61,605 nt of DNA from Patescibacteria group bacterium (GCA_043797545.1 JAZDPN010000064.1:1-61605); one strand, 5' to 3'; positions 6,336 through 40,163 are shown, counted from the first letter of the stretch. Program-made: numbers and translations. Notes: generated by a model from the letters alone, not told the origin.

Positions 6336-6818
6336 ATGCAACAACATACTTTGAAACCGAAAAAAGGTTCCACTCACCGCCACAATCGGCGCGGCATCGG
6401 CGACGGTTTCGCTGGTCGCGGCTGCAAAGGCCAACAAGCGCGCGTCGGCGGCCGATCGAAATTTGGCGCCGGTTTCGAGGGCGGTCAAATTTCCCTCTTG
6501 AGGAGAATGCCAAAATTAGGTGGTTTTCGTAATGTAAACCGGGTCGAATTCCAGCCGGTCAATCTGGGTGATTTGGAAAAACTCGGCATCGATAAAATTT
6601 CGCGCGAGACGCTCAAAAATGCCGGCCTGATTAGCAAAAAAAATTCCCCAGTGAAGATTCTCGGCTTTGGTCAATTAAGCAAAAAATTAACTTGCTTCGT
6701 CGATGCCGTTTCGAAATCAGCTCGCGCGGCGATCGAAAAAGCCGGCGGGTCAATCGAGCTGCCCGCCAAAAAACCGGTTGAGAAAAAGGCCAAAAAAGCG
6801 GAAAATCCAGCCAAATAA
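6336..6818 (+). CDS. rplO: 50S ribosomal protein L15
   Basis: LKPKKGSTHRHNRRGIGDGFAGRGCKGQQARVGG... is a typical L15. Confidence 0.93.
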   Translation: MQQHTLKPKKGSTHRHNRRGIGDGFAGRGCKGQQARVGGRSKFGAGFEGGQISLLRRMPKLGGFRNVNRVEFQPVNLGDLEKLGIDKISRETLKNAGLISKKNSPVKILGFGQLSKKLTCFVDAVSKSARAAIEKAGGSIELPAKKPVEKKAKKAENPAK

Positions 6819-6827
6819 TTTTTTCGG

Positions 6828-10878: not shown

Positions 10879-10911
10879 TTTAGAATTTCCTCAAAATTAA
10901 TCTTTTGAGCA

Positions 10912-11922: not shown

Positions 11923-11968
11923 CATCGGATTTGCTTGTTTTTGATTTTAATTTTTAACCTTTTTCAAA

Positions 11969-12745
11969 ATGCCCCCAATCACTGCTGCCCTGGTCAAAGA
12001 ATTACGCGATGCCACTGGCATCTCGATGCTGAAATGTAAAAAAGCGCTTGAAGAGGCCGCTGGTGATCTCGAAAAAGCGCGTGAAGTTTTACGCAAAGCG
12101 GGCGAAGCTGATGCTGCGAAACGTTCCGAGCGCAAAGCGGGTGAAGGCGTGATCGCACTCAAAATCGCGACTAATGGTAAAAAAGGCATCGTCTTGCAAC
12201 TCTTCTGTGAGACCGATTTTGTCGCGGTAAATGAAGGTTTTAGCTGTCTGGCCGACGATCTCGCCAGCGAGGCACTCGAGGGCGTCGATATCATAAATGC
12301 GAGTGAGACAAAAATCCGTGAGGCGATCCAAAAAAACGGTGAGAATATCAAGATTGGTGAAGTGAAAATTTTAGAAGGCGAGACAATCGCGGGCTACCTG
12401 CATTCCAATAAAAAAATCGGCGTGCTCGTCGCTGGCAGCGGCGCCGCGGAAGTTTTGTCCGACATAGCGATGCAGATCGCTGCGATGAAGCCAGCCGTGA
12501 TTTCACCGGAGCAAGTTTCTGCCGATGAGATCGCCAAAGAAACCGAGATCCAGAAAGAAATCCTCGCCAAAGAAGGCAAGCCAGCCGCAATGCTGGATAA
12601 GATTTTGGAAGGTAAATTAAGGAAATTCCGCGAAGACAAAAGCCTCTTGAAACAAGCTTTTGTCAAGGACTCGTCTCAGACCGTCGAGCAATTTTTGGCA
12701 GCCAAGTCCGCCAAGGTTGAGCAATTCATCCGGCTCGCGATCTGA
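11969..12745 (+). CDS. tsf: elongation factor Ts
   Basis: ITAALVKELRDATGISMLKCKKALEEAAGDLEKAREVLRKAG is the UBA-like N-terminus, with the EF-Ts core following. Confidence 0.93.
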   Translation: MPPITAALVKELRDATGISMLKCKKALEEAAGDLEKAREVLRKAGEADAAKRSERKAGEGVIALKIATNGKKGIVLQLFCETDFVAVNEGFSCLADDLASEALEGVDIINASETKIREAIQKNGENIKIGEVKILEGETIAGYLHSNKKIGVLVAGSGAAEVLSDIAMQIAAMKPAVISPEQVSADEIAKETEIQKEILAKEGKPAAMLDKILEGKLRKFREDKSLLKQAFVKDSSQTVEQFLAAKSAKVEQFIRLAI

Positions 12746-15363: not shown

Positions 15364-16307
15364 ATTTTTGGCAAAAGACCGCTCGTCCGGTTCTCGCGCT
15401 CGCGCCGATGGCCGGCTACACCGACTCCGCGTTTCGGCAGCTCATTCGCAGCTTTTCGAGAAAAGTAATTTTGTGGAGTGAATTCGTTTCGGCCGACGCG
15501 CTCAAATTCGATTCGAAAAAGTCGAAAGAGATGCTCGCATTCGCGCGAAACGAGCAGCCTTTCGTCGCACAAATTTTCGGGAAACGCGTCGAGAATTTCG
15601 TCGAAGCCGCGAAATTCGTCGAGTCGATCGGCGCGGTCGGCGTCGATTTGAATTTCGGTTGTCCGGCGAAAAAAGTCGTGAATTCCGATCACGGCTCGGC
15701 GCTGCTGAAAAATCCGCAACTCGCGAGCGAAATAATTTCAGCGGTAGCGAATTCGGTCAAAATCCCGACGAGCGTAAAAATGCGACTTGGCATTTCGGAC
15801 GACAAAAATCTCGAAAGTTTCGCAAAAATGGTCGAAAATTCCGGCGCACAACTTTTGACAATTCACGGGCGGACAGCGAAACAAATGTACCACGGCGAAG
15901 CTGATTTCGCGCCGATTTACCGCGTAAAAAAACTTGTGAAAATTCCGGTGCTCGGCAACGGCGACATCGACTCCGCGGACAAATTTTTCGCAAAATTGGG
16001 CAATCTCGACGGGCTGATGATCGGTCGCGCGGCGGTCCAAAATCCGTGGATTTTTCGCGAAATCGAAAATCGACTCGCGGGCAAAACTTCGAAAACGCCG
16101 CGCACTTTGCGAGCAAAAATTCCGACGATTTTGCGACACGCGCGATTGCTCGTCGCGACGAAAGGCGAAAAACGCGGGATGCTCGAGATGCGAAAATTTT
16201 CGGCCAATTATGTTCGCGGCGAACCGAATGCGAAAAAACTGCGCGCTAGCCTAGTCCGAGTTGAGAAACTGGCTGAACTGAAAAAAATCCTAATTCGGGC
16301 CGTTTAA
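15360..16307 (+). CDS. dus: tRNA-dihydrouridine synthase
   Basis: LAPMAGYTDSAFRQLI, LNFGCPAKKV and catalytic Cys context. TIM-barrel Dus layout. Confidence 0.92.
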   Translation: MNFWQKTARPVLALAPMAGYTDSAFRQLIRSFSRKVILWSEFVSADALKFDSKKSKEMLAFARNEQPFVAQIFGKRVENFVEAAKFVESIGAVGVDLNFGCPAKKVVNSDHGSALLKNPQLASEIISAVANSVKIPTSVKMRLGISDDKNLESFAKMVENSGAQLLTIHGRTAKQMYHGEADFAPIYRVKKLVKIPVLGNGDIDSADKFFAKLGNLDGLMIGRAAVQNPWIFREIENRLAGKTSKTPRTLRAKIPTILRHARLLVATKGEKRGMLEMRKFSANYVRGEPNAKKLRASLVRVEKLAELKKILIRAV

Positions 16308-17362
16308 TTGTCGTCGTGGCGTAAAAACGGCTCGATATGAGCCTCATCGACCAAACCGCGCGCGATCAAATCCTGAGAGAAGCGGCGCATGCTAATCATG
16401 CCCTGATTGGAAGAAGTCGTAATTGTGTTGTCGAGCTGCGGCGTATCGCCTTTGCGAATCGCATTGCGAATCGCGGCAGTCGTGATCATCAATTCAAAAA
16501 CGGCAATCCGCCCGCCACCCTTCTTGGGAACCAACCTCTGACTCAAGATCGCAATCAAGGAATCAGCCAGGCGTGCCAAGACCGCATCGCGCTGATCAAG
16601 CGGATAAGCCTGCATTAAGCGATTCACGGTCTGGGAAGCTGAATTCGTGTGTAAAGTCGAGAAAACGAGATGGCCCGTCTCGCACAAATTCAAAGCAGCC
16701 GTAATCGTATCGCGATCGCGCATTTCGCCGACCATGACAATATCAGGATCTTCGCGCAGAGCGACGCGCAGAGCTGCATCAAACGAACGCGTATCGTAAT
16801 TCAGCTCGCGCTGCGAAAAAATACATTTCTTATTCGTAAAAATGTACTCGATTGGATCTTCAATCGTGATGACATGCTCAATCCGCGTTTCGTTAATTTC
16901 TTCCAGCATCGAACGCAAAGTCGTCGATTTACCGCTACCGGTGGGGCCACACATCAAAATCAAACCTTGTTTACGTCGAATCAAATCATGAATCGCGGCT
17001 GGCACGCCGATCTCTTCCAGGGCCGGTAGGACTTTATCGACTTGGCGCATCACCAGCGCAATCCGGCCGCGACGATAAAAAGCATTGCAGCGAAAATTCG
17101 TACCGTCGGAATGCTGGTAAGAGAAATCAAATTCGCGGTCGACTTTCAGTCTTTCGATTTCCACCTGACCTTTGAGCATTTTGAAAATCACCGCCTCGGC
17201 ACTCGGTTCGTCGAGGATCGGGAGCGACTCGACCAAATGGATTTCGCCGAAAATTCGCAAAGCGGTTTTTTGGTCGGCCCCGAGATGAATATCGGAAGCC
17301 TGCTTGGCGATCGCAAGGTCGAGCAATTTTTGGAGATCGAAGACTGCTGGAGTATCTGTCAT
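16304..17362 (-). CDS. pilT: type IV pilus retraction ATPase PilT
   Basis: 352 aa. Walker A GPTGSGKSTT, Asp box, Walker B DPDIVMVGEMRD, His box FSTLHTNSA. PilT-sized, with no PilB N-terminal extension. Confidence 0.9.
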   Translation of the reverse strand: MTDTPAVFDLQKLLDLAIAKQASDIHLGADQKTALRIFGEIHLVESLPILDEPSAEAVIFKMLKGQVEIERLKVDREFDFSYQHSDGTNFRCNAFYRRGRIALVMRQVDKVLPALEEIGVPAAIHDLIRRKQGLILMCGPTGSGKSTTLRSMLEEINETRIEHVITIEDPIEYIFTNKKCIFSQRELNYDTRSFDAALRVALREDPDIVMVGEMRDRDTITAALNLCETGHLVFSTLHTNSASQTVNRLMQAYPLDQRDAVLARLADSLIAILSQRLVPKKGGGRIAVFELMITTAAIRNAIRKGDTPQLDNTITTSSNQGMISMRRFSQDLIARGLVDEAHIEPFLRHDDN

Positions 17363-17800
17363 TTAGGCTTTTTGATAATCAATCTCGGCCCGGGCCTTTT
17401 CGCGCTCGATGAATCTCTTGCCAACTAGCAAGTCGAAACTCGGCACATCAGCCGCGAGCTGAGTCGCGGTCGGACGATCGAGAATCAGAACTTCCGAATT
17501 GGAAAAAGCGCGCGCCGAAGCATTGCGCGTCTTTTGGCCGAGTGCACCGAGTTCGCCGAAAACGTCGCCCGGTTCGAGAAAAGCGACTTCTTCCGCCATC
17601 CCGTCGGCGATGCGAACAATCTCGACTTCTCCACTTTTGATCACGAAAAGTTGATCGCCGGCTTCACCTTCATGGAAAATGAATTCCCCCGCCGGAAAGC
17701 TTTTAATTTGAATTTTATCAATCAAAGCGGAATCACGTACTGCATCTAGATCGGCAAAAAGCGATAGTTTTTTAATCGCTGCCAGATTTGTAGGGAGCAT
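17363..17800 (-). CDS. stand-alone cyclic-nucleotide-binding domain protein (145 aa)
   Basis: CAP/PKA-type cNMP-binding fold (FHEGEAGDQLFVIKSGEVEI ... FGELGAL...RNASARA). Its TAA stop abuts the pilT ATG with no spacer. Confidence 0.82.
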   Translation of the reverse strand: MLPTNLAAIKKLSLFADLDAVRDSALIDKIQIKSFPAGEFIFHEGEAGDQLFVIKSGEVEIVRIADGMAEEVAFLEPGDVFGELGALGQKTRNASARAFSNSEVLILDRPTATQLAADVPSFDLLVGKRFIEREKARAEIDYQKA

Positions 17801-17829
17801 CCTTTTGGTTTTAGTTTAAAAACGCTGTT

Positions 17830-17838
17830 ATTTTAGCA
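17830..17838 (-). promoter_or_regulatory. extended -10 (TGCTAAAAT) for the cNMP-binding gene and pilT
   Basis: Plus strand reads ATTTTAGCA, 29 nt upstream of the ATG at 17800. Confidence 0.5.
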
Positions 17839-17896
17839 TAAAAATGATTCGAGGACAATCTCTGCCTTGGCTCAAATCGGGTAAAATCCAATCGCT

Positions 17897-18457
17897 TTGA
17901 CCCTCTTTCTACTCTTCACGCTAGCTCATTTATTGGGCGACTACCCTTTTCAAACTAGCTGGATTTATCTCCAAAAAACTAAAGGTCTGCCTGGTCAACT
18001 GCTACATGTCAGCATTTTAGGAGCCTGTTTCTTAATCCTGACTGCTCCCCTGCTGAGCAATCGGATCGTATTAAACGCACTCACCCTGATTTTAGTCATG
18101 CATTTTTTGCAAGACTTTTTGAAAATTGAGCTGGTAAGCAAACGCGGTAAAATCCGCCCTTTTCCGGCTCTCGTACTTGATCAAGCGCTGCACTTCGCAC
18201 TCTTGTTTGGAGTGACGAACCGACTTAATTCAGTCAATCTAAAAATCGGTTTTGGGGCGGACCTACTCGGATCACCTAGTTTGCCCTGGATTCTGTTTTA
18301 CTTAGCCACTCTGATCTTGGGAACTTTTACCTGGGATGTCGTAAGATTTGTTTGGCGCAACGAAACGAAAGAGTTGCAACACGACTGGCTAGCGCTTGGC
18401 CTGCGCGGCGCGATTATTACAATTATTTTTGGGGCAGTTTATTTACTGGATTGCTGA
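17897..18457 (+). CDS. DUF3307-like membrane protein
   Basis: N-terminal HLLGDYPFQT motif and multiple TM helices. Its 3' end overlaps the convergent FecR-like gene by 19 nt. Confidence 0.65.
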   Translation: MTLFLLFTLAHLLGDYPFQTSWIYLQKTKGLPGQLLHVSILGACFLILTAPLLSNRIVLNALTLILVMHFLQDFLKIELVSKRGKIRPFPALVLDQALHFALLFGVTNRLNSVNLKIGFGADLLGSPSLPWILFYLATLILGTFTWDVVRFVWRNETKELQHDWLALGLRGAIITIIFGAVYLLDC

Positions 18458-20991
18458 TTGTTTATAATCCCGTTAATCCCATTTTGAATTTTATTGACTA
18501 AATCTTGGCCGGTACTTTGAAAAAGTTGGCCGCTATTGATTTGTTCACTGGAAGATTTTTGTAACTCAGAAAAATCACTGGTGGATTGTTTTAGGCTTTC
18601 GACCGCTTCGGAAGCCTTTTGAGCGGTCGCCGCGGCTTCTTCAGCCGCTTTTTTGGCAGTCGCAGCAGCATCCTCAGCCGCTTTCTTGGCGGCCGCCTCT
18701 TCAGCTGCTTTCTTGACTCTAAGCTCTTCAGCCGCTTTCTTGGCAGTATTTGCAGCTTCCTCGGCTGCTTTTTTGGCAGCTGCCTCTTCGGCTGCTTTCT
18801 TGGCGGCATTAGCAATCTCCTCAGCTGCTTTCTTGGCTGCCGCCTCCTCGGCGGCTTGCTTGGCTCTCAGCTCCTCGGCTGCTTTCTTGGCTACAGCTTC
18901 TTCAGCAGCTTTCTTCGCTGCAGCTTCTTCAGCAGCCTTGCGCGCAATAGCTTCCTCGTCGGCTTTACGTTTTTTGGCCTCCTCTTCCTCGACAGCACGA
19001 CGGGCCTTAGCTTCTTCTTCTTTTTTAAGCTCAGCTTCAGCCTTACGCTCAAGCTCTAAATTTTTCGCCAGGTCAGGCTCATTGAGATTAGTTTCGAGCT
19101 TGATCTCGCTCTTACCAGTTTCGCCGAAAAAGTAATTTGCGTCCTGCTGGGCAGCTGTCTGAACCTGAGCCGGAGCAGCGTTGTCGGTAATTTCTTTAGC
19201 CTTTGATTTCAACCATTCAGAGTTGGTTTCGGGAATAAAGTCAGGTTTGGCAATACCTTTGTCTTTCAGCTGAGAAACCTCCGATAAAACCTCGGTTAGT
19301 TTTTGAGAATCGAGATTTTGCTTAGCTGAATTTTCAGATGAGAGACCCGGCTCAGCCTCGATATGCTCATTCAGTAAGCGCGAATCTTCGTTCAGGTTTG
19401 GTTTGTAATCACCAGTATTTTCGGGACCAGGCTGATCCTCAGAAGTAACCGTCGAAAGCAAGGGCGCGACCGCGTGGCCAATTTTGTTTTCGAGGTTTTG
19501 AGCTGTTTTGTCAGTATTAGCCGGATTTTGCTCTGGCTTTGTCCCATCTTGCTGGGATTCGGTTTTGACAGCCCGCGCAATCGCATCTCGGGCTTTTTCC
19601 GTCTCGTCAATATTATTAATCGCAGCCTGCAAGTAAGGATTAACTATCAGCTCTTGCAGATTTTCATTGGAAATTTTTCTGACTTCCGGAGCGGCGGCGA
19701 AATCACCGCGAATATCATCAGCTAATTTCTGGACAATCTTCTTGGCAGTTGTTTGCTCACCAGCCTTAGCTAAATCATAGGCTTCGATAATGCGTCTCTG
19801 ATATTGTTCTTTTTTAATCTCGTCTTTCTGGTCAGCCGGAGCGGACTCGACTTCGACTTCGTAAAGAAATTCTTTGGCGGCATAATCTCGATCCGTCGCG
19901 ACCGTCGAATTGGTTGTTTGTTTAGCGTTATTGATTACGCGAACGATGTTCTGTGCAATCTCAGTTTTCTTGGCCGCGTCAGTCGTCTGATCACGCGCTT
20001 CGGCTACTTGCAGAATCAAATCTTTAGCAGCGGCGAGCTGAGTCGTCGCGACATCTTCAGCTCCCTGACGCAGTAAAACCTGAGCTTCAAGCACTTTACG
20101 CTCGGCGATCTTGGAGGCGACAACCGCCTTTTGCTCCACGCCAAAAGCCGTCGAGAGCAGAAGCTGGTCACGCAAATTTTTCAACTTGTAACCAAACTCC
20201 CCCGGTAAAGCACCAACCAATTTCTCCTGAGCACGCTCGATTTTGCGCTGAACCTTAATTTCTTGAATCGCGTCGGCCTGTTCATTGCCTTGAAACCAAT
20301 CAGCCTTCTTCTCGTTATCGGCAATTTGCTCGACTTTGAAACGTACCGACCGCTGAGCTTCAGCACTCTCGAGGGTCGCATTGGCACGGCGCACGCGCGG
20401 GAAAGAACCCGCTTTCTGACCTTCGATAATTACAGTCGACTCGTCTTTTTCGGCGCTCGCGCGCTGAACTTTTTTGAGCAACAAACTGTGTTCGACTGCC
20501 ATTACAGTCGTATTGCCGTCGCTATTTACCGCAATGTCAAAGGCTGAACCGCGCACAGCTGCGGCGACATCGGCGGTAGCCACCTCAAAAGTCGATTCAC
20601 TATTGACCAGCTTGGTGACCTTGGACCAAACCTCTCCCAAATCAAGCCGCAACCTGACCCGACTCGCCGTCGCATCTGAATCCTCACCGGCAATCTCGGT
20701 CAGAGTAATTTTGGTGCTGCCGGATAAGCGCGAAACAGAGTTGTCAAAGAAAACAATCTCAGCCGAAGCGTCAGCCGCGGTCTCGATATTATCGCCGACG
20801 TGTAGGACATCTCCATCCAGCGCCGCAATTCCATTAATCCAGGCACGACCGTGTTCCAGCTTGATATGCGTGGCTTCATGGATTTCCGCCAAGACGTCCG
20901 GCATCAAGGCAGCTCGTGAAAGCAGCCCACTCTCGAAAATCGAGAAGGCAAAGGTCAGCAAAATGATTGCAACCCAAAATGATTTTTTCAT
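18439..20991 (-). CDS. secreted FecR-domain protein with long coiled-coil and Ala/Glu/Lys repeat tail (850 aa)
   Basis: Signal-peptide-like N-terminus and a FecR-like beta domain (GRAWINGIAALDGDVLHVGDNIETAADASAEIVFFDNSVSRL). The C-terminus carries iterated AAEEAAAKKAAEE units. Confidence 0.8.
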   Translation of the reverse strand: MKKSFWVAIILLTFAFSIFESGLLSRAALMPDVLAEIHEATHIKLEHGRAWINGIAALDGDVLHVGDNIETAADASAEIVFFDNSVSRLSGSTKITLTEIAGEDSDATASRVRLRLDLGEVWSKVTKLVNSESTFEVATADVAAAVRGSAFDIAVNSDGNTTVMAVEHSLLLKKVQRASAEKDESTVIIEGQKAGSFPRVRRANATLESAEAQRSVRFKVEQIADNEKKADWFQGNEQADAIQEIKVQRKIERAQEKLVGALPGEFGYKLKNLRDQLLLSTAFGVEQKAVVASKIAERKVLEAQVLLRQGAEDVATTQLAAAKDLILQVAEARDQTTDAAKKTEIAQNIVRVINNAKQTTNSTVATDRDYAAKEFLYEVEVESAPADQKDEIKKEQYQRRIIEAYDLAKAGEQTTAKKIVQKLADDIRGDFAAAPEVRKISNENLQELIVNPYLQAAINNIDETEKARDAIARAVKTESQQDGTKPEQNPANTDKTAQNLENKIGHAVAPLLSTVTSEDQPGPENTGDYKPNLNEDSRLLNEHIEAEPGLSSENSAKQNLDSQKLTEVLSEVSQLKDKGIAKPDFIPETNSEWLKSKAKEITDNAAPAQVQTAAQQDANYFFGETGKSEIKLETNLNEPDLAKNLELERKAEAELKKEEEAKARRAVEEEEAKKRKADEEAIARKAAEEAAAKKAAEEAVAKKAAEELRAKQAAEEAAAKKAAEEIANAAKKAAEEAAAKKAAEEAANTAKKAAEELRVKKAAEEAAAKKAAEDAAATAKKAAEEAAATAQKASEAVESLKQSTSDFSELQKSSSEQINSGQLFQSTGQDLVNKIQNGINGIINNQQSSK
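18590..19070 (-). repeat. in-frame tandem repeats encoding (K)AAEEAAAKK units
   Basis: Iterated GCTGCTTTCTTGGC...GCCTCTTCAGC units on the plus strand. They produce the spurious antisense ORFs 18619..19059 and 18653..19135. Confidence 0.8.
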
Positions 20992-21015
20992 TTATTTTTG
21001 TTTTAAAATCATGGC

Positions 21016-21024
21016 ATTTTAGCA
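21016..21024 (-). promoter_or_regulatory. extended -10 (TGCTAAAAT) for the FecR-like gene
   Basis: Plus strand reads ATTTTAGCA, ~25 nt upstream of the ATG at 20991. Confidence 0.5.
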
Positions 21025-21071
21025 CAAAACACCCAAAATCACAAACCAAAGTTAACCTTTTCGCCTTAAGC

Positions 21072-21461
21072 CTACGCTCCGATCCGTCTCACGATTTCGT
21101 TGAAAACTTCGGTCGAAAGTCCAAGTTTGACATTATTAAAGGCAGTCGTCGGCAAAAAAAGGGTTTCAAGTTTTTCAGCCGCGCGCACAGTCGCCGTCCT
21201 GGGTTTAGCAATCGCCAGTAAAGCCAGCTCGCCGAAAAAGTCATTGACATGCAAATCGGCAATCTTGCGCTCACCGCGCTCGACAAGCGCCGAGCCAGCT
21301 ATGATGACGTACATCCCATCTGGGATCGCACCTTCTTGAATCACGACCGCATTTTCGGCGAAATTTTTCTTGATGCAGGCCGCCGCCACGACACGCAAAT
21401 GATCAGTCGTCAGACCTTTGAAAAAAGGGAGTGTGCGCAGAGTTTCGATTAAATCATTCAT
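21072..21461 (-). CDS. stand-alone cyclic-nucleotide-binding domain protein (129 aa)
   Basis: FFKGL...VIQEGAIPDGMYVIIAGSA...FFGELALL...RTATVRA is a canonical phosphate-binding cassette. Lies 22 nt downstream of the cyclase gene. Confidence 0.85.
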   Translation of the reverse strand: MNDLIETLRTLPFFKGLTTDHLRVVAAACIKKNFAENAVVIQEGAIPDGMYVIIAGSALVERGERKIADLHVNDFFGELALLAIAKPRTATVRAAEKLETLFLPTTAFNNVKLGLSTEVFNEIVRRIGA

Positions 21462-21483
21462 CGCGGAAGGTAAATTAGCATTT

Positions 21484-23472
21484 TTATTTGATTTTTAAAA
21501 TCGTTTCTCCGCGCCAGTTCACGGGCGGTGGATTTTTGCGAAAGCGGGTAATCCTGGCAAGCATGACTGCCGAGGCGGGATGATGAATAGTGCGATAGAT
21601 CTGAACTGCTGTTTTGAAATCTCTTTTTCTATAAGCCGAGAACGCTTTCAGGCTTTTCTCCGCCAAACTAATCTGAGCCGCAGTCGCCGATTTTTTTTCC
21701 GCTAGTAATTCGTAAATTTCCGTAAATTCGCGCCGTCCTTTGACTACGACCCGATCAATCAAACGCGCCAGCAATTCCTTTTGGACTTTTTGGAAAGTCT
21801 CGCCGGAAATCAGAATTTGGGTGCCATAAATTTTATTCACGCCTTCAAGTCGGCTGGCGACATTGACCGCATCACCAATCGCGGTGTAATTGAAGCGAGT
21901 CGCTAAACCGAGGTTACCGACTACGGCTGGCCCGGTATGGATGCCAGTTCGCGCCTTGGGAACTTTGTCGGCCAGTATTTTTTTAGTAGCGAGCGCGGCC
22001 CGACAAGCCGCCAAGGCGTGATCGGGATTGGGCAGAGGCGCATTCCAAAAAGCCATGACGGCATCACCGATAAATTTATCAAGCGTGCCGCCGGCTGCAA
22101 GAACAGTCTTCGTAATCGCCCCTAGTCGCTCGTCGAGCATACGTACGACGGCAGAGGGAGACATTTTTTCAGAAATCTTGGTGAAATTTTCTAGATCGGC
22201 GAAAAAAATCGTCAGCTCGCGTTTCGCACCACCCAAACCCAAAGCCCGCGGATCATCCTCAATCTTGCGAACGAGCTCAGGCGCGAGATAACGCGAAAAA
22301 GCCTTTTGAAGATAGCGTAATTCTGCTCCTTTGCCGAAATAATGGTAGATGAGTGCTACGACCAAAATCGCCAGCGTTCCCCAAAGCAAAAAGGCAAAAG
22401 GCAGCAAAATTCCATTTTCGAAAGCAAAAATCGCTCCCAAAAGCTCGGCGAGAATTCCCAGTCCAAACAAAATCAAAGAAGTGACGAGCGGGAGCGTAAA
22501 AAACAAAATTCCAAAAATAATCAACGTCGCTCCAAGTAAAACCACAGCTCCTGATTGATTTAAGTTCTGAAGTGTCTGGCCGGAAAGCAGGGTCTGCAAA
22601 ATATTGGCATGAATCTCGACCCCGGACATCGCCTGCCCGGCCGAAACCGGAGTAAGTTGCTCATCATGAATGCCAGTCGCGTCAGTAAATCCAAGCAGGA
22701 CTATTTTGCCGCGGACTAAATCTGGATTGAAATTATTGTGAAAAATATCAGTGAAAGAAATGCGCGCAAAACTGCCGGGGCGACCGAAAAAATTAATTAG
22801 CAGCGAGCCATTTTCGAGTGGTGCGACGATCGGACCGTAAGTTTTTTGCAAAGCGAATGGTGATCTCAATTTGGATTGAGAAAAAACCAATCGATTGGGA
22901 GTCAGGCTTTGCGACGTTGTGCCAAAAAATTTTTCTAGGAGAACTAAGTCAAAATTCGCGATTTTACCGGAAAAAATAGGAACGCGACGCACCACCCCAT
23001 CGACTTGGTCGGCCGCAAGATTGGTAAAACCAAAATCAGCCGCGGCGCGAAATTCCGACAAAGGCAGTAGATCGGAATCGACATTTTTCTGAGCTGCCAA
23101 AACAAGATTGGGATTTAGGTTGAGCGTCTCGGTCAACAGCGCGTCATCAGCAGAAGTAGCAGCCTCGGAAAAAATCACATCCAAGCCAATCACTGCCGCT
23201 CCAGCGGATTGCAGATTGCGGAGCGCGGTCGCGAAAAATCCACGCCGCCAGTCTTGCCAGCGTCCCAAAACCGGATCGGCCAAGCTCGCATCGTCAATCG
23301 CAACTAGAATAACTTCAGGAGCAGCCCGATTTGTAGTCGAATAAATCCTGTCTTGTAGCGCGAGCTGCCAGCCGCCAAAAATTCCCTGGCCATAGAACCA
23401 AGTCCATAAAAAAGCGTTCAAAAGAATCAGCCCGGCCGAAACGAAAAACTTTTGGCGTTTATTTTTTTCCAC
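21484..23472 (-). CDS. CHASE2 sensor domain-containing class III adenylate/guanylate cyclase
   Basis: N-terminal TM plus a periplasmic CHASE2-like region, a 3-4 TM block, then a cyclase homology domain (LTIFFADLENFT, KFIGDAVMAFWNAP, RTGIHTGPAVVGNLG, YTAIGDAVNVASRLE). GTG start. Confidence 0.88.
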   Translation of the reverse strand: MEKNKRQKFFVSAGLILLNAFLWTWFYGQGIFGGWQLALQDRIYSTTNRAAPEVILVAIDDASLADPVLGRWQDWRRGFFATALRNLQSAGAAVIGLDVIFSEAATSADDALLTETLNLNPNLVLAAQKNVDSDLLPLSEFRAAADFGFTNLAADQVDGVVRRVPIFSGKIANFDLVLLEKFFGTTSQSLTPNRLVFSQSKLRSPFALQKTYGPIVAPLENGSLLINFFGRPGSFARISFTDIFHNNFNPDLVRGKIVLLGFTDATGIHDEQLTPVSAGQAMSGVEIHANILQTLLSGQTLQNLNQSGAVVLLGATLIIFGILFFTLPLVTSLILFGLGILAELLGAIFAFENGILLPFAFLLWGTLAILVVALIYHYFGKGAELRYLQKAFSRYLAPELVRKIEDDPRALGLGGAKRELTIFFADLENFTKISEKMSPSAVVRMLDERLGAITKTVLAAGGTLDKFIGDAVMAFWNAPLPNPDHALAACRAALATKKILADKVPKARTGIHTGPAVVGNLGLATRFNYTAIGDAVNVASRLEGVNKIYGTQILISGETFQKVQKELLARLIDRVVVKGRREFTEIYELLAEKKSATAAQISLAEKSLKAFSAYRKRDFKTAVQIYRTIHHPASAVMLARITRFRKNPPPVNWRGETILKIK

Positions 23473-23511: not shown

Positions 23512-23586
<75 letters not shown>

Positions 23587-23788: not shown

Positions 23789-24109
23789 TTACATGCTGGC
23801 CAGCGCATCTGACAACAAAGTATCTGCCAATTGAGCCTCTTTCTTCTGCTTACGATCATCAAAAGCGCTCAAATTCTTAAAGTGAATGCTATTAATTTCA
23901 TGTTTTAACTTGATCAGAATTTCGGGCGGCAAGCCTTTAACCAACTTTTCATCACGGCTTTTAAGTTCCAATAAACGCATCTGCAAAGCTTGCAAGCTTG
24001 CCACATTCATTTTTGGCAGCGCTTGAAGCATTTTGATTTTTTTCGATTTTTCTAAACTAATTGCAGTCAAAAGTAATTCTTTGACGGAATTTTGGAGGGA
24101 ATTTTCCAT
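23789..24109 (-). CDS. hypothetical helical protein (106 aa)
   Basis: ATG at M6 of ORF 23789..24124, 7 nt after the stop of the upstream small ORF. AT-rich, predicted all-helical, no known motif. Confidence 0.5.
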   Translation of the reverse strand: MENSLQNSVKELLLTAISLEKSKKIKMLQALPKMNVASLQALQMRLLELKSRDEKLVKGLPPEILIKLKHEINSIHFKNLSAFDDRKQKKEAQLADTLLSDALASM

Positions 24110-24116
24110 AAAAAAA

Positions 24117-24314
24117 TTAAGCACCTCTAGTGCGAATTTGGTTAATGCCGGAAGTAGTAGAGTTATCCGCTACTTGCCGATAATTCTCAAGAGCCTGACG
24201 AGTCGCGTCAGCAACATCCATTTGGCTTTGTTGATTTAAATCGGCATCTTGAGAAAAATTTTTTCGTACAAGATCAAGAACCTCCTGCCCTAACTTAGCG
24301 CTTTGCTGCTCCAA
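24117..24314 (-). CDS. hypothetical small protein (65 aa)
   Basis: TTG ORF, first gene of a 2-gene unit divergent from the 833-aa gene. Q/D-rich and helical. Confidence 0.4.
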   Translation of the reverse strand: MEQQSAKLGQEVLDLVRKNFSQDADLNQQSQMDVADATRQALENYRQVADNSTTSGINQIRTRGA

Positions 24315-24486
24315 AGTCGGGCTGGATTCAGTCCGACTTTCCGAACCTTGCGGAATATCGAGCTTTTTTGGTGTTTCTGGAGAGATTTTATTTTAATTTA
24401 AATTTAATTTTCGACTTGTTTTTCCGAATCTGTTAGTGTGAAAATTTCATATTTCTATCTTCAGATAGTTTTCAATGTTTCCTGGC

Positions 24487-24495
24487 ATTTTAGCA
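24487..24495 (-). promoter_or_regulatory. extended -10 (TGCTAAAAT) driving the two small minus-strand genes
   Basis: Plus strand reads ATTTTAGCA. An inverted repeat CTATCT-TC-AGATAG (24455-24468) lies ~20 nt downstream of it. Confidence 0.45.
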
Positions 24496-24552
24496 AAAAT
24501 ATGCGCGGATCTCAATCTCAAACAGTTGAGTTTTAATTTATTTTTAATCTAA

Positions 24553-27054
24553 ATGGAGCCTCCCGACTTACTTCGCGAAGACCCGCTCTTAACTGAAATT
24601 TTGGCAAAAATCGAGAATTGCATGCGTAGCTTCGATTTCGCTGCTCATAAAAAAGAACTCGAATCACAAAAACAGGCGAGAAAACGGCAAGGATTAGTGC
24701 TTTTCCGAGAAGATGATGACATAGCTATAGATCAAGATATTGAGGACGGCAATATCGCCGGACTCTCGAGAAGAGCTTCCGAAATTCAAAAAACTCGAAC
24801 TGACGAGCGGGCTCAAGCGCAGATTTTAAATCTGTATGAATTGATCGGATTACTACATCGCGCCAAAAACAATTTTGCCGGTTTTTTAGCTGGTTTCCAA
24901 AAAACCTTGGATTTTTTCGCAAAAGACCAGCTGAATTTTTCGGAACTTAGATTAAATTTACAAATTAGGGTCATTTATGCTTTAGAACAGCTGGTGGGCT
25001 ACGCGATCACTTATTCTCACGATTTTAATGAGGCCCTTTTATTAATGGAAAGGCTTGAAGAAAAAATTGAGCAACTTGATCCAAAGCTAATCGATGTCGA
25101 TACTTTCCGAGATAATCTGCGTCTCAATAGAGCTTCGGTATATCGCCGGCTCGGCAAACACAAGAAAGCAGAAGGCTTATTGTCCGAAGATCAGCACGAA
25201 GTACACTACCCGCAAAATCTAATACATCGCTACGTATATGTTTGTGAGCTTGCCCGAGCCAAGAGAGATCGTGAACAAATAAGACTTTGCTCTGATAATT
25301 TGCTTTTATTGATCGGAGGAATTAACGGGCAAGGCAAATTCGCTAATTTTTTCCAACAGCTTTTTATAGATCTCAGCGCAGCAGAAAAAAATGAAATTAC
25401 TGTGCGTATTCAAAAAGAATATCTGCTTTGTCTGCTGGAATTAGATCAACTTCCTGAATATGAGTCTAAGAAGATATCCTGGTCGGAAAGTTGGCGAGAA
25501 AACATGGCTAGCCAACCAGCTGATTTAGCAATACTTGAAGGAGATTTACTCTTAAAAGAAGCTGGAAAGTCGGGAACGGCCGATGATTCTGCGGATAGAA
25601 AATATCAAGGAGCAATAGGGCTGTATCAGGAAAATAACTTGGATTTTTGTGCTACCGAAGCTGTCATCCGCTATCTAAATAAATTTAAAGAAAAATTTCC
25701 TAGAGAAAAGTTGGAAGAGCTTTTTCTACGCCACTGGCAAATCGTCGAAAAAAATATCGGCCAAACAGTAATGCAGGTCTTCGCAGCCGAACATCAAGAA
25801 ACTGCCAGGGTTTCCTCTGTTCTATTCGAAATTGCCGAGTTGATAAAGTTCTTATACGGCACAGAAGGCTCAAACAAAGAAAAAACCTTACAGCAAGCAT
25901 TAATCTCTCTCGGTAAGAAAAACTTAACGGCCGCGAAAGAGAAAATAATTTTGCAAAATGACGATAACCCTGAGGATCAATATCGCAAATTAAGTGAGGC
26001 TTTCGGTGCGAAGGGTCTGCTAGCAATAAGCAAAGATGAAGGCGGAATGTGGAAAAAGGAATATTCTGCGCGAGCTGAAAAAGATGATTTCGACTGGCGA
26101 TATTTACTCGACCTCCCGGAAATTCAGGCAAAAATAGCCGAGGCAGACCGGACACAAAAAATGACCGAATTAAAATTTGTATTTACAAACACAAAATGTA
26201 CTGACGCTGCGATGCATTTAGTTTTTTTGCCCAATGAACCTGGACGGATCTCAATTGTTGACCGTGGCAGCAGACTTGGATTCTCGGACGCGGAAAAGCA
26301 ATTAATGCTGCCAGAGAAATTTCCACCGAAACGCATTCAAACAGGAGTCACAACAACTGTTGATAGAGACTACCAGCAAATTCAGCGGGCGATTGCGATG
26401 TTCTACCTGGAAAGAATTCCGCGCTTCCAAATTACGGCGGCCGAAAATATCGTCTATGCCTGGACCGAAGAAGACGGCCAAAAAAAAGTTCTCGGTGGTT
26501 TGTCAGCCAATATTTTGGAAAATGAAATTAACCACGCGGCTGGCGAGCATCTCAGCTATCCGGAAATTTTTGGCGGAGAGAATTTTTGGGAGACTTTAAA
26601 AACAGAGGTCGATAAGCAACTACAAGCTGGATCGCTATCACCGATTTGGCAAGAAGCTTTTCAACAAAAAGGTGAAGTCAAACGCGAACAATGCGCCGAG
26701 ATCGGCGGACTAGCCGCACGCGATGGAACAATAGCTCCAGCGATATTCCTGCAAACAACCAAGTTCTGCTTGGAAAAGAAACGACCCTGGATGATCATGA
26801 TTCGCAATGCAAGAGTCGAGCGCCTATTTAAACTAATCGGCATCGAAGCTGTGGACTTGGGATATGCCAATATCCAAGACAAAAAAGTACGAGCGGAGCT
26901 GTGCCAATCTGGTTGGGACACAGCAGGACTCACCGCCTGGGAAGCAGATTATTTCAATCGAGAATTGAATCCGAGGATGGTCATCCTAAATACTCAGCAA
27001 GCCCAAAATGCAATCTTGGCTTTCTTCCAAAAGAGGAATCGACCGCTAAAATAA
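24553..27054 (+). CDS. large hypothetical protein (833 aa): helical-repeat N-terminal region plus C-terminal GNAT/N-acyltransferase-like domain
   Basis: AT-rich ATG ORF. The first ~600 aa are helical/TPR-like with no motif I recognise. The last ~228 aa (nt 26368-27051) carry EIGGLAARDG...(25 aa)...WMIMIRNARVERLFKLIGIE...WEADYF...NPRMV. From memory this resembles the thermostable-hemolysin / N-acyl amino acid synthase branch of GNAT-fold enzymes. Confidence 0.75.
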   Translation: MEPPDLLREDPLLTEILAKIENCMRSFDFAAHKKELESQKQARKRQGLVLFREDDDIAIDQDIEDGNIAGLSRRASEIQKTRTDERAQAQILNLYELIGLLHRAKNNFAGFLAGFQKTLDFFAKDQLNFSELRLNLQIRVIYALEQLVGYAITYSHDFNEALLLMERLEEKIEQLDPKLIDVDTFRDNLRLNRASVYRRLGKHKKAEGLLSEDQHEVHYPQNLIHRYVYVCELARAKRDREQIRLCSDNLLLLIGGINGQGKFANFFQQLFIDLSAAEKNEITVRIQKEYLLCLLELDQLPEYESKKISWSESWRENMASQPADLAILEGDLLLKEAGKSGTADDSADRKYQGAIGLYQENNLDFCATEAVIRYLNKFKEKFPREKLEELFLRHWQIVEKNIGQTVMQVFAAEHQETARVSSVLFEIAELIKFLYGTEGSNKEKTLQQALISLGKKNLTAAKEKIILQNDDNPEDQYRKLSEAFGAKGLLAISKDEGGMWKKEYSARAEKDDFDWRYLLDLPEIQAKIAEADRTQKMTELKFVFTNTKCTDAAMHLVFLPNEPGRISIVDRGSRLGFSDAEKQLMLPEKFPPKRIQTGVTTTVDRDYQQIQRAIAMFYLERIPRFQITAAENIVYAWTEEDGQKKVLGGLSANILENEINHAAGEHLSYPEIFGGENFWETLKTEVDKQLQAGSLSPIWQEAFQQKGEVKREQCAEIGGLAARDGTIAPAIFLQTTKFCLEKKRPWMIMIRNARVERLFKLIGIEAVDLGYANIQDKKVRAELCQSGWDTAGLTAWEADYFNRELNPRMVILNTQQAQNAILAFFQKRNRPLK

Positions 27055-31516: not shown

Positions 31517-32056
31517 TTACCAAAAAGTTTTTTTGAGGCCGAGGAAATAAGCCGACAAATTGACCAAAGGATTCGCGATCGAAGCAAAAAGCAGTAAAAA
31601 TAGACTCGCGCGCCATTCCCAATTAATTAAAAAATTGGTAAAAACTAAAAATCCCAAAATGTAATCAATCTGGTCAAGCGGTAAGAATGGTCGTCCGGGA
31701 GCAATACGCCAAAGCCTTTTGAGAAAACTGCCCGCCAAATCTCCGACCAAAGCACCCAGTCCGGCCAGCGCGCCGAAAAGCAAAAATTGCCCAAGATGCT
31801 CCAAGAGACCAGTCGAGTAGATTTGGTACTTTTGAAAACAAAACTGGAGCGCGCCAATTAGCGCGCCACCAAGCGTCCCGGCCAATAGGCCGCGCCAAGA
31901 CTTGTTTTGGCCGAAAATCTCGCGACCCAGAAATTTTTTACCGCAATCAACTGGCCGCGCCAAAACCGGGCAAAAATTAATTTTCGTCGCCAAGACTGGC
32001 AACATATTGGCCACAAAAGCCGGGAGTGCGAGATACAAAATCGCAAAATAGCTCAT
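31517..32056 (-). CDS. CarS-like (CDP-archaeol synthase family, DUF46) integral membrane cytidylyltransferase
   Basis: 179 aa. LPAFVANMLPV, GQNKSWRGLLAG, GDLAGSFLKR and GRPFLPLDQIDYILG match my recollection of the CarS family blocks. Confidence 0.75.
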   Translation of the reverse strand: MSYFAILYLALPAFVANMLPVLATKINFCPVLARPVDCGKKFLGREIFGQNKSWRGLLAGTLGGALIGALQFCFQKYQIYSTGLLEHLGQFLLFGALAGLGALVGDLAGSFLKRLWRIAPGRPFLPLDQIDYILGFLVFTNFLINWEWRASLFLLLFASIANPLVNLSAYFLGLKKTFW

Positions 32057-37922: not shown

Positions 37923-40163
37923 TTGATGCTGCAAACTTTTTACCGTTCACACTCGTGCAATGATTTGACCGAGAAAAATCTCGACGAAAAAATCAAACTC
38001 GTCGGCTGGGTCGATCGCCGCCGCGATCACGGCGGACTGATTTTCATCGACTTGCGCGACCGCTACGGCATCACGCAAATCGTGACTGACCCGGAGATTT
38101 CCGGCGCGGCGCACAAAACTTTTGAGAAAGTGCGTCCGGAATGGGTTTTGCAAATCGAAGGCAAAGTCCGCGCGCGTCCGGCCGGTCAGGAAAACGCAAG
38201 GATGGCGACGGGAAAAATTGAAATTTTGGTTTCGGGTGTGAAAGTTTTGAACGAAGCCGAGACTCCGCCTTTCGAGATTGCCGAGGAAAATGATGAAAAC
38301 GAAGAAATTCGGCTGAAATATCGTTATCTTGATCTACGCCGAAAACGCTTACAAAAAAATATCGTTCTTCGCCACAAGCTACTTCAGGCGACGCGGAAAT
38401 ATTTTTACGAGCAAAATTTCGTCGAGATCGAAACGCCGATTCTCATCAAAGGGACGCCGGAGGGCGCGCGCGAATATCTCGTCCCGAGTCGCGTGCATCC
38501 GGGAAAATTTTATGTGCTACCGCAGTCGCCGCAGCAGCTGAAACAGCTATCGATGGTCGCGGGTTTCGATCGCTACATGCAGATCGCGCGCTGTTTTCGC
38601 GACGAAGATCAACGCGGCGATCGCCAGCCGGAGTTCACGCAAATGGATTTGGAAATGAGTTTTGTGAATTCGGATGATGTGATGGATGTGAATGAAAAGG
38701 CTCTAATCTCGGTAACGCAAGAGTGTCGGCCGGACGCGCAATTGAAGTTCGCGAAATTTCCGCGACTTTCTTTCGACGACGCGATGAATAAGTACGGAAG
38801 CGACAAACCGGATTTGCGTTACGAACTCGAAATCGTCGATATCACCGCAGAAACGCGCGGCTGCGGTTTCGGGATTTTCGCGAATGCGGCAGTCGTGAAA
38901 GTTTTGAAAGTTCCCGGCGGCGCGAAATTCAGTCGGAAAGATATCGAGGAATTGACCGATGCAGCGAAAATTTACGGCGCGAAAGGACTCGCGTGGATCA
39001 AGGTCGCGGAAAAATTCGAGGGCGTGCCGGTCGAAAAATTGGGTCAAGATTTGACGAAAAAGATTGCCGAAAAATGCGGCGCGGTGAAAGAAGACATTTT
39101 GCTTTTCGCGGCGGATGAATGGGAAACCGTTTGCACTTCGCTCGGCGCAGTGCGCATCGAGTCGGCGAAAAAATTGGGCTTGCTCGACGGCAAAGAAAAC
39201 GAATTCGCATTTTGCTGGATTACCGATTTCCCGATGTTTGCGAAAGATGCGGAAACTGGCGAGCTCGCGTCGATGCATCACCCCTTCACCCGTCCGAAAA
39301 ATCCGGCGGATCTCGACAGCGATCCGCTGAAAGCGAAAGCTGAGGCGTACGATGTCGTGCTGAACGGCTACGAAATCGGCGGCGGCTCGGTGCGGATTCA
39401 CGAGCGCGATCTACAAAAAAAGATTTTCGACATTTTGAAAATCTCGGACGAAGATGCCGAGCGTCGTTTCGGACACATTTTGAAAGCGTTCAGCTTCGGC
39501 GCGCCGCCGCACGGAGGGATCGCGTGGGGGCTCGATCGCATTGCGATGCTTTTCGCCGGCGAACCGAACATTCGCGAGGTGATCGCCTTCCCGAAGACAA
39601 ACAAAGCCGAGGATCTCATGCTGTCCGCGCCGGATGTCCTGCCCGCGGCGCAGCTCGCGGAGGCAAATATTCGCTCAACCGCGGATGGGAAAAAATCGAA
39701 ACGCGACATTTTCGCGGAGATCGTCGAGCTTTTGAATTCGCGCAAAATTAAATTTGAAAAACTCGAACACGCCGCGGTCAAAACTTCGGCGGAGGCGGCG
39801 AAAGTCCGCGGGACGACGCTCGAACAAGCTGCCCGCGCGCTCGTTTGGAAAACTGAAAACGGCTTTATTCAAAGTGTTTGCTCGGCGGCGCGAGAAGTCG
39901 ACGAGGCGCAATTGAAAAAAGTCGCGGGCGTGCAGAAACTCGAGCTCGCAAAACCGGAGGAGGTGAAAAAAATCACCGGCTGCGAGATCGGCTGTGTCCC
40001 GCCGTTCGGGAATATTTTCGATTTACCAGTTTTCGTCGACAAGTCGCTTGAGTCGGAAAAGATAATCGTCTTCAATGCCGGCGAGCACACGAAGTCGATC
40101 AAAATGCCGTTCGCCGATTATTTGAAAATCATCGGTGGGAAGACGAGTGAGTTTGCGAAATAA
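37923..40163 (+). CDS. aspS: aspartyl-tRNA synthetase fused to a C-terminal YbaK/ProX-type aminoacyl-tRNA deacylase domain
   Basis: Bacterial-type AspRS (OB fold, motif 2 FRDEDQRGDRQPEFTQMDLEMSF, GAD insertion, motif 3 GGIAWGLDRIAMLF) ends near aa 590. An extra 153 aa follow, with a YbaK-like pattern (..LEHAAVKTSAEAA...GCEIGCVPPFG..VFVD..L...IVFNAGE). Confidence 0.9.
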   Translation: MMLQTFYRSHSCNDLTEKNLDEKIKLVGWVDRRRDHGGLIFIDLRDRYGITQIVTDPEISGAAHKTFEKVRPEWVLQIEGKVRARPAGQENARMATGKIEILVSGVKVLNEAETPPFEIAEENDENEEIRLKYRYLDLRRKRLQKNIVLRHKLLQATRKYFYEQNFVEIETPILIKGTPEGAREYLVPSRVHPGKFYVLPQSPQQLKQLSMVAGFDRYMQIARCFRDEDQRGDRQPEFTQMDLEMSFVNSDDVMDVNEKALISVTQECRPDAQLKFAKFPRLSFDDAMNKYGSDKPDLRYELEIVDITAETRGCGFGIFANAAVVKVLKVPGGAKFSRKDIEELTDAAKIYGAKGLAWIKVAEKFEGVPVEKLGQDLTKKIAEKCGAVKEDILLFAADEWETVCTSLGAVRIESAKKLGLLDGKENEFAFCWITDFPMFAKDAETGELASMHHPFTRPKNPADLDSDPLKAKAEAYDVVLNGYEIGGGSVRIHERDLQKKIFDILKISDEDAERRFGHILKAFSFGAPPHGGIAWGLDRIAMLFAGEPNIREVIAFPKTNKAEDLMLSAPDVLPAAQLAEANIRSTADGKKSKRDIFAEIVELLNSRKIKFEKLEHAAVKTSAEAAKVRGTTLEQAARALVWKTENGFIQSVCSAAREVDEAQLKKVAGVQKLELAKPEEVKKITGCEIGCVPPFGNIFDLPVFVDKSLESEKIIVFNAGEHTKSIKMPFADYLKIIGGKTSEFAK

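Follow-up and report, generated by a model that had tools for sequence, protein, structure and literature searches.

We analysed a 61,605-nucleotide (nt) stretch of DNA from a Patescibacteria group bacterium (GCA_043797545.1, JAZDPN010000064.1:1-61605; the whole stretch is called the window below), which encodes a large protein of 833 amino acids (aa) and, immediately downstream, a sensor histidine kinase with about nine predicted membrane helices. The large protein ends in a predicted GNAT-fold domain, and its gene lies directly upstream of a homologous kinase gene in every complete locus that we compared. We tentatively propose that the large protein is an acyl-signal synthase and the kinase its cognate membrane receptor, a reading to which we give slightly less than an even chance.

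Architecture of the large protein

The gene is an uninterrupted open reading frame running on the + strand from ATG 24553 to TAA 27052-27054, as stated in a preliminary description made from the DNA alone. Every motif quoted there is found in the product, namely EIGGLAARDG at aa 716-725, WMIMIRNARVERLFKLIGIE at aa 746-765, VDLGYANIQD at aa 767-776, WEADYF at aa 796-801 and NPRMV at aa 806-810. The first and second motifs are spaced by 20 residues and not by about 25. The gene is also AT-richer than its surroundings, as had been noticed: GC content is 0.384 over 24001-25000 and 0.400 over 25001-26000, against a window mean of 0.479. The dip sits in the N-terminal two-thirds of the gene (0.41), and the GNAT part has a GC content of 0.465. 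Neither a membrane segment nor a signal peptide is predicted in the 833-aa protein.

The NCBI record of this protein, 'MAG: thermostable hemolysin [Patescibacteria group bacterium]', has 715 aa and starts at TTG 24907. The upstream 118 codons (24553-24906) are conserved in a 180-aa fragment from another Patescibacteria metagenome-assembled genome (MAG), P0002, which has 54% identity to the window protein across aa 12-178, and in the full-length relatives, which are alignable from the N-terminus onward. Judged from this conservation, ATG 24553 is the true start, and the NCBI model is therefore 118 residues short at the N-terminus.

By fold and family, aa 596-833 are best placed in the GNAT branch of LuxI synthases, N-acyl-amino-acid synthases and T_hemolysin proteins, an assignment that leans on a structural model. 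The preliminary description had named the thermostable-hemolysin and N-acyl-amino-acid-synthase branch, and this assignment is borne out by a Pfam match above cutoff, by the model and by the structures that resemble it. The sole significant Pfam family of the window protein is PF12261 (T_hemolysin), matched at aa 705-775 with 29.8 bits in the whole protein (E = 6e-7) and with 32.1-32.2 bits in the isolated domain (E 1e-7), the gathering cutoff being 27. Since the open reading frame spans 2.5 kb, the Pfam match has this E-value and synteny is conserved, the gene is real, far above chance.

The AlphaFold2 model of aa 596-833, built from a seven-sequence alignment (A3), reaches a mean pLDDT of 86.9 and a pTM of 0.86. 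Its elements follow the order β1-α1-(α2)-β2-β3-β4-α3-β5-α4-β6-β7 with a V-shaped β4/β5 core, with two additions, one helical between β3 and β4 and the other of two helices ahead of β7. Foldseek against the PDB returned 747 matches at E ≤ 10; the 50 best that were listed all have the GNAT fold, with a probability of about 1.0, so the structural check proposed in the preliminary description did yield GNAT-fold proteins. The best matches are the acyl-homoserine lactone (AHL) synthases LasI (1ro5, 8.9e-6), MesI (6wns, 1e-5), TofI (3p2f, 1.4e-5), BjaI (5w8c, 7e-5), RpaI (6wn0, 7e-4) and EsaI (1kzf, 7e-4). FeeM (2g0b) was matched at 1e-3, and generic acetyltransferases (Rv2747, GCN5) at 1e-4 to 1e-3. 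Neither the window protein nor its GNAT domain matched anything in NCBIfam, and a literature search on T_hemolysin as an acyltransferase found nothing relevant.

On strand β4 lies the motif E716-I-G-G-L-A, which by topology would take the position of the E-x-S-R bulge of LuxI enzymes and of the catalytic glutamate E95 of FeeM. Only two columns of the GNAT domain are invariant across the family, and G718 is one that does not vary. The Q/R-x-x-G-x-G/A coenzyme A (CoA) loop is absent between β4 and α3, where the window protein has R723-D-G-T-I-A and its relatives have P-x-x-x-R. This loop is likewise missing from LuxI and FeeM enzymes.

The N-terminal region had been described as helical, TPR-like and otherwise unrecognisable, and our analysis agrees. 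An AlphaFold model of aa 1-600 (alignment A4; pLDDT 82.2, pTM 0.82) shows a superhelix of about 22 helices, which Foldseek matches to generic TPR structures (APPBP2, separase, APC5, LGN, MalT domain III and the peptide-binding RapF/RapJ) at root-mean-square deviations (rmsd) of 9-25 Å. No Pfam TPR family matches the window protein, and among the relatives P0005 matches one weakly (E 0.04-0.1). Between the solenoid and the GNAT domain, a small α/β module carries the motif I-x-I-P...H-x-G....LS..E..LL, conserved in the family alignments; it has no Pfam match and a weak GAF-like Foldseek match (4bwi, E 0.03).

The protein had been called an orphan, which is nearly right. Word-indexed searches of 5.8 billion proteins with the full protein, the C-terminal domain and the family alignment returned the query itself or nothing. 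Exhaustive phmmer against 1.84 billion cluster representatives did reveal about seven distant relatives: of eight other matches, six are full-length, one is the fragment P0002, and the last, P0008, was disregarded as a low-complexity repeat protein. The full-length relatives, P0003-P0007 and P0009, have 789-867 aa and 18-24% identity to the window protein, and the matches come from Patescibacteria and Gracilibacteria MAGs and from unbinned metagenome contigs. The same search found no homologue of the N-terminal region alone. Scans of genome and metagenome contigs with the window protein, and of metagenomes with the conserved kinase transmitter of locus L001, gave no relatives. Sequence and profile searches of the PDB with the protein and with the family, GNAT, s2 (a small upstream protein, see below) and kinase sensor alignments gave nothing significant. 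As far as sequence comparison can tell, the large protein belongs to a very small, very divergent and lineage-restricted family with a common architecture.

Conserved pairing with a membrane kinase

The window kinase consists of about nine predicted membrane helices within aa 1-295, a cytoplasmic linker domain, HisKA (PF00512, 35.6 bits) and HATPase_c (PF02518, 82.8 bits), with an H-box SAHELRTPL and a G2 box GLGLGL. A stand-alone receiver converges on its 3' end and is likely to be its phosphoacceptor; response regulators also lie near the module in L007, L008 and L009.

In all seven complete loci (the window, L001, L006, L007, L009, L010 and L008), a homologous full-length kinase, membrane domain included, begins 0-23 nt downstream of the large gene. 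Loci L001-L004 encode P0003, L005 and L006 encode P0004, and L007, L010, L009 and L008 encode P0005, P0006, P0009 and P0007, respectively. Conservation of the pairing, which the preliminary description had raised as a point to check, is thus found in every complete locus and also in a variant locus, L013. At L008, the partner is a 708-aa kinase frame 7 nt past the stop codon that the gene calls of the record had missed, and a 691-aa neighbour, considered as the partner, was rejected as an unrelated CoA-ligase-like protein. The public gene calls of L008 are wrong at two places, where the 708-aa kinase (10612-12738) and a 324-aa frame (6630-7604) are shown as small reverse-strand calls; the contig also holds masked bases, so that a run of X appears whichever strand is translated.

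L013 was found from the kinase side by scanning GTDB species representatives and belongs to a Candidatus Peribacteria MAG. Its kinase sensor matches the family with an hhalign probability of 99.4%, and 23 nt upstream lies a gene for a 508-aa protein, the C-terminal 215 residues of which align with the family GNAT domain (hhalign 94.7%, E 6e-8). This domain has weak Pfam matches to PF21926 (FeeM, E 0.055) and PF00765 (Autoind_synth, E 0.14). At the N-terminus, the TPR region is replaced by an AdoMet_dc pyruvoyl-decarboxylase domain (PF02675, 42.7 bits, cutoff 25), which by homology would make amines from amino-acid-type substrates. We notice that its self-cleavage motif is atypical, D-T-S-N-S instead of the usual E-S-H. 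Two B12-binding radical-SAM genes lie convergent downstream. Together, the fusion gene and these genes are placed at L013 1673-3199 and 5403-8621. Taken at face value, the gene context of L013 points to small-molecule amine chemistry. Because L013 keeps the GNAT domain and the kinase, the conserved core of the module is the GNAT domain plus the nine-helix kinase, and the N-terminal partner is exchangeable.

The components of the module differ in their rate of divergence. Between L010 and L009, identity is 30% in the large protein, 57% in the kinase sensor and 70% in the remaining kinase, so the large protein is the fastest-evolving component.

A mosaic pattern is seen between L001 and L006, which carry the P0003 and P0004 modules, respectively, and come from the same samples. 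The large proteins are 22-25% identical, and of the two small proteins encoded upstream, s1 is 27% identical and s2 is 38% identical in its N-terminal half. The kinases are 30% identical in the first 230 residues, which form the membrane sensor, and 95% identical in the remainder. At the DNA level (L001 7040-9073 against L006 4109-6136), the first 690 nt of the kinase genes are without detectable similarity; about 1,050 nt with a single difference follow, and then about 290 nt that are about 80% identical. L002, L003 and L005 show the mosaic as well, and identity over the ~1,050-nt tract ranges from 98 to 99.9%. The mosaic junctions recur in independent assemblies from different assemblers. 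Two alleles of the shared tract, with 10-21 differing sites, each occur with both cassettes, in different samples, when L002 and L005 are compared. This would point either to recombination that is still going on or to assemblers having mis-phased a 1-kb repeat. On these alignments the robust finding is that a tract of at least 98% DNA identity joins modules with almost unrecognisably different enzyme and sensor parts. Non-coding or unannotated repeats, 79-89% identical and common to L001 and L006, flank the modules in both orientations (L001 3084-3482, 3674-3855, 9280-9414 and 13758-13908; L006 56-240 and 506-900); they may be mobile or recombinogenic elements.

The agr (AgrB-D-C) and comQXP systems of Firmicutes resemble this arrangement in that a hypervariable block of signal gene and sensor is joined to a conserved transmitter. 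They differ in that no homology exists, a ribosomal peptide is presumably not what serves as signal here, and the pattern is seen in a single pair of modules. We consider it possible, but improbable, that the module is a lineage-specific, fast-diverging cassette of Patescibacteria and Gracilibacteria in which a TPR-GNAT or decarboxylase-GNAT protein makes a new N-acyl-amine signal, the nine-helix kinase reads it, and the block of enzyme and sensor recombines against an unchanging transmitter into specificity groups, or pherotypes, as agr and comQXP do.

Proposed signal synthesis and competing readings

Under the signal-synthase proposal, the GNAT domain would use an acyl-thioester as donor and pass its acyl group on to an amine acceptor other than S-adenosylmethionine (SAM), giving a lipophilic N-acyl signal. 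This signal would be sensed within the membrane by the roughly nine-helix sensor of the co-transcribed kinase encoded 4 nt downstream, which would then phosphorylate a nearby response regulator. The TPR-like solenoid and the α/β module could serve to bring in, or to gate, either a substrate or a partner. The whole would act as an autocrine or quorum-sensing-like circuit with a logic analogous to that of LuxM-LuxN. The fold, the family match, the architecture, the strict pairing, the exchanged N-terminal partner and the mosaic divergence are what the analysis shows; catalysis itself, the identity of donor and acceptor, export, and the relation of ligand to receptor are steps that we infer. We favour this reading because of the fold branch, motifs that resemble those of this branch, the strict pairing, the decarboxylase swap in L013 and the design of the receptor: about nine membrane helices with short loops recall, by analogy, receptors of lipophilic signals. 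It is also favoured because the membrane sensor, and not the cytoplasmic part of the kinase, diverges along with the enzyme between L001 and L006.

The same gene logic is found in Vibrio, where LuxM-LuxN and AinS-AinR place an acyl-signal synthase gene directly upstream of a nine-helix kinase that senses the lipophilic product in the membrane. They differ from the window module, which has about nine predicted helices as well, in that the kinase here is not a hybrid, PF17327 is not matched, and no homology has been demonstrated. The LuxM-like membership suggested in the preliminary description is not supported, as no PF17327 match was found at E ≤ 1 in the full protein or at E ≤ 10 in the domain, and we rejected LuxM/AinS membership on this ground.

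A further reason for the signal-synthase proposal is a precedent in the Candidate Phyla Radiation (CPR), the same phylum-level group, where 18 adjacencies of LuxI homologues and sensor kinases were put forward as candidates for entire quorum-sensing systems (Bernard et al. 2020, mSystems; PMC7567580). The idea is the one that we propose for the window, a GNAT-type signal synthase beside a transmembrane kinase. These authors searched with PF00765, LuxI-seed and CATH profiles and required at least 75% mutual coverage for BLAST hits (PMC7567580), and owing to this coverage requirement an 833-aa TPR fusion would fail their filter. Neither 'hemolysin' nor PF12261 occurs in their paper or its supplements (PMC7567580).

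The reaction that we would propose for the window protein is that of FeeM, which joins an acyl-thioester and an amine to an N-acyl amide. On structural grounds, FeeM (2g0b, PF21926) would also fall in the same GNAT sub-branch, with a Foldseek E of 1e-3 and target-normalised TM-scores of 0.55-0.60. FeeM-type enzymes differ in being single-domain and in not being described as kinase-coupled, and the window protein has no significant sequence match to them: a weak PF21926 match occurs in one family relative (E 0.1) and none in the window protein.

The LuxI synthases listed above are the best structural matches, with target-normalised TM-scores of 0.52-0.63, and they share with the window protein an F/Y-P-E-h-h motif, an acidic β4 residue and the lack of a canonical CoA P-loop. 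They differ in that the window protein has insertions at β3/β4 and before β7, a 600-aa N-terminal fusion and no PF00765 match (E ≤ 1 in the full protein, E ≤ 10 in the domain). We compared the family with a reference alignment of the LasI, TofI, BjaI and RpaI sequences from the PDB (A5), which has 17 invariant columns. Here hhalign pairs S-Y-P-E-I-F of the family with F-P-E-L-L of LuxI, setting Y669-P670 on LasI F81-P82, and also aligns the α4 regions. The F-P motif and, by topology, E101 (E716) are the only invariant LuxI columns with counterparts; neither hhalign nor manual inspection found any in the GNAT domain for LasI R23, W33, D44, D47 and R70, which serve SAM binding and lactone formation, or for S103-R104. 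Because the SAM-binding and lactone residues are missing, SAM would not be the acceptor.

A true divergent LuxI-type AHL synthase that uses SAM, paired with a LuxN-like AHL-sensing kinase, is therefore very unlikely in our judgement. The six best Foldseek matches and the LuxI-kinase adjacencies proposed for CPR (PMC7567580) are in its favour, and so is a weak LuxN_Vibrio match across the membrane region of the L013 sensor (NCBIfam, E 0.039). Against it, this is the single LuxN match among eight sensors, the window protein lacks PF00765 and PF17327 at E ≤ 10, and the residues named above are not conserved. We accordingly rejected a strict LuxI-type synthase, on the absent SAM and lactone residues and an hhalign probability of 43% between the family GNAT domain and LuxI, and regard a LuxN-like identity of the sensors as unsupported.

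The database name raises another alternative, a thermostable haemolysin acting as a membrane-damaging toxin. Classical PF12261 members are single-domain proteins of about 200 aa from Proteobacteria. The window protein shares with δ-VPH and δVFH from Vibrio and Aeromonas the E-[IV]-G-x-L-A strand and the helix-strand-helix that follows. It differs from the classical members in being an 833-aa, cytoplasmic, TPR-fused and kinase-linked protein of Patescibacteria. The PF12261 match above cutoff and the NCBI name speak for a toxin, as does the characterised homologue δVFH, which binds phospholipids and is cytotoxic (PMC11033176). Still, the match spans 71 profile residues within an enzyme-family fold, the protein has a 600-aa cytoplasmic-type scaffold and neither a signal peptide nor a membrane segment, and it is strictly coupled to a two-component kinase and not to secretion genes. 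We find this alternative barely credible.

Several observations weigh against a signal synthase. The PF12261 match is borderline and partial, covering profile positions 76-146 of 174, and the domains of only three of the seven relatives reach this family, even at E ≤ 10. The only characterised PF12261 proteins are described as secreted lipid-binding cytotoxins or haemolysins and not as enzymes (PMC11033176). The hhalign probability against LuxI is low, as given above, and in the β4-α3 loop, at the place of the P..R motif of its relatives, the window protein lacks 5 residues. E716, the presumed general base, is kept in four of seven proteins (window, P0003, P0004, P0005) and replaced by Q or V in P0006, P0007 and P0009. 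The preliminary description had counted homologues without the acyl-transfer residues as evidence against its assignment, and the replacements in these three proteins are in part evidence of that kind. The module contains no gene for an exporter, for an acyl carrier protein or for acyl activation, and Patescibacteria usually lack fatty-acid synthesis. The mosaic comes from one pair of metagenome-assembled modules, whose shared 1-kb tract can be mis-phased. Finally, in the C-terminal ~120 aa of the L001, L006 and L007 kinases the G1 and G2 ATP-binding boxes are degenerate or missing, and the L007 kinase also has no clear H-box; the kinases of the window, L008, L010 and L013 are canonical. By their sequences, some modules may contain pseudokinases or phosphatase-only proteins.

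The loss of the candidate glutamate, the two invariant columns and these degenerate partner kinases would also suit a non-catalytic accessory, in which the GNAT-like domain and the TPR scaffold form a cytoplasmic ligand-binding or regulatory module for the adjacent kinase. The very fast evolution of the large proteins, 20-30% identical where the kinases are 57-70% identical, points the same way. On the other hand, the GNAT core is confidently predicted and retains the β4 bulge glycine together with conserved aromatic and hydrophobic motifs, and many GNATs function without a general base. The mosaic divergence lies in the membrane sensor and not in the cytoplasmic part, contrary to what a protein-protein regulator would lead one to expect. 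We hold such an accessory role to be doubtful, with a rather small probability.

The last alternative concerns the two small genes upstream. The s1 protein is polar and poorly conserved and has no Pfam match. The s2 protein, whose gene overlaps or abuts s1, carries the motif L-P-P-x-x-L-x-x-L and 11 invariant columns in its alignment, and no relatives of it were found in Pfam or the PDB. The s1/s2 pair occurs in five loci, namely the window and L001, L006, L007 and L011, where s1 is represented by positional homologues, and is missing from loci of Gracilibacteria and Peribacteria type. The large protein might be a protein or peptide acyltransferase, whose solenoid binds s1/s2 or the kinase for acylation by the GNAT domain, perhaps yielding an acylated pheromone in the manner of ComQ-ComX-ComP; it could be likened to a fused NatA (Naa15 TPR plus Naa10 GNAT) or to a GNAT that lipidates peptides made by ribosomes and modified after translation (RiPPs). 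TPR solenoids typically bind peptides or proteins, and Foldseek matched RapF/RapJ and, weakly, Naa15. The positions of s1 and s2 are conserved in the five loci, and the hypervariable s1 sits within the divergent L001/L006 cassette, as would be expected of a pheromone precursor. Yet three lineages lack s1/s2, the Gracilibacteria- and Peribacteria-type loci without them still have the GNAT-kinase pair, L013 has a small-molecule decarboxylase domain in place of the TPR region, and the best structural matches are small-molecule synthases and not protein acetyltransferases. Moreover, s1 has no recognisable leader, cleavage or export features, and the TPR matches are generic at rmsd 9-25 Å. We regard protein acylation as unlikely.

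Two further candidates were rejected. PADLOC matched nothing beyond the generic ATPase domain of the kinase, which leaves no defence system, and a GNAT toxin-antitoxin system does not fit the architecture, an 833-aa protein without a small partner of a known antitoxin-type family.

Genomic setting and implications

The coordinates of the module and of its neighbours are collected in Table 1.

Table 1. Positions of the module, its domains and the neighbouring features in the window
Feature	Position	Strand	Basis
Large gene; 833-aa cytoplasmic product in three parts, TPR-like solenoid, small α/β module and GNAT domain	24553..27054	+	Open reading frame
TPR-like all-helical superhelix, aa ~10-483, ~22 helices, family-specific	24580..26001	+	AlphaFold, Foldseek
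Small α/β module, aa ~488-570 (β-β-α-α-β-β-β)	26014..26262	+	Model secondary structure
GNAT-fold domain, aa 596-833, probable LuxI / N-acyl-amino-acid-synthase / T_hemolysin branch	26338..27051	+	Pfam, AlphaFold, Foldseek
β4 strand motif E716-I-G-G-L-A	26698..26715	+	Family alignments, strand from model
Sensor histidine kinase, 701 aa	27059..29164	+	GTG start 4 nt past large-gene stop; HisKA and HATPase_c
Stand-alone response-regulator receiver, 124 aa	29143..29517	-	PF00072, 49.6 bits; convergent, 22-nt overlap with kinase 3' end
AT-rich divergent intergenic region between s1 and large gene	24315..24552	.	DNA alignment with L011
s1, small divergent open reading frame, 65 aa (78-95 aa elsewhere)	24117..24314	-	Open reading frame
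s2, ~100-aa helical protein, probable start ATG 24109	23789..24124	-	Alignment A6
tRNA-Met gene, left border of AT-richer block (s2, s1, large gene, kinase)	23512..23586	-	ARAGORN
CHASE2-adenylate/guanylate cyclase	21484..23472	-
cNMP-binding proteins (two)	17363..17800; 21072..21461	-
850-aa FecR-like protein, long Ala/Glu/Lys-rich repeat region	18439..20991	-
PilB-like T2SSE ATPase	16304..17362	-

Much of the intergenic region is conserved with L011 1885-2050, which suggests shared regulatory sites, and from its divergent layout the region is presumably a shared promoter/operator region. A 12-nt inverted repeat at 24313-24340, 92% complementary with a 4-nt loop, overlaps the start of s1. A scan for promoters and terminators gave no excess over shuffled expectation. 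The tRNA-Met gene may mark an island boundary or integration site.

Upstream of the module, a signalling-rich stretch extends over 16304-23472. Elsewhere in the window, an aspartyl-tRNA synthetase (37923-40163) has a C-terminal YbaK-type editing domain (PF04073, aa 616-735), apparently an unusual fusion. Another fusion, a 785-aa protein (54678-57035), combines an ATP-grasp domain of the sugar-transfer-associated type (PF14397) with a MATCAP-type carboxypeptidase domain (PF08014). At 31517-32056, this bacterial Patescibacteria contig encodes a CarS-like membrane protein of the CDP-archaeol synthase family (PF01864).

The domain assignment was already public in the automated name 'thermostable hemolysin', which is misleading as a virulence-factor call. 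We have not found described the TPR-α/β-GNAT architecture, its decarboxylase exchange, the mosaic divergence, or the obligate pairing with a nine-helix kinase family across Patescibacteria, Gracilibacteria and Peribacteria.

Abundant and for the most part uncultured, the Patescibacteria (CPR) live attached to hosts and have reduced genomes, and little is known of how they perceive one another or their hosts. The module offers a testable two-gene unit, present in at least three CPR lineages with exchangeable fusion partners, in a group where quorum-sensing candidates have so far been proposed via homology to classical families only (PMC7567580). If the recombining-cassette reading were true, it would imply kin-discriminating communication in ultra-small episymbiotic bacteria, possibly with host-derived acyl chains. 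If the enzyme does make a signal, the module would represent a new signal chemistry and a new receptor family, and one would have to ask from what source an organism that lacks fatty-acid synthesis obtains its acyl groups.

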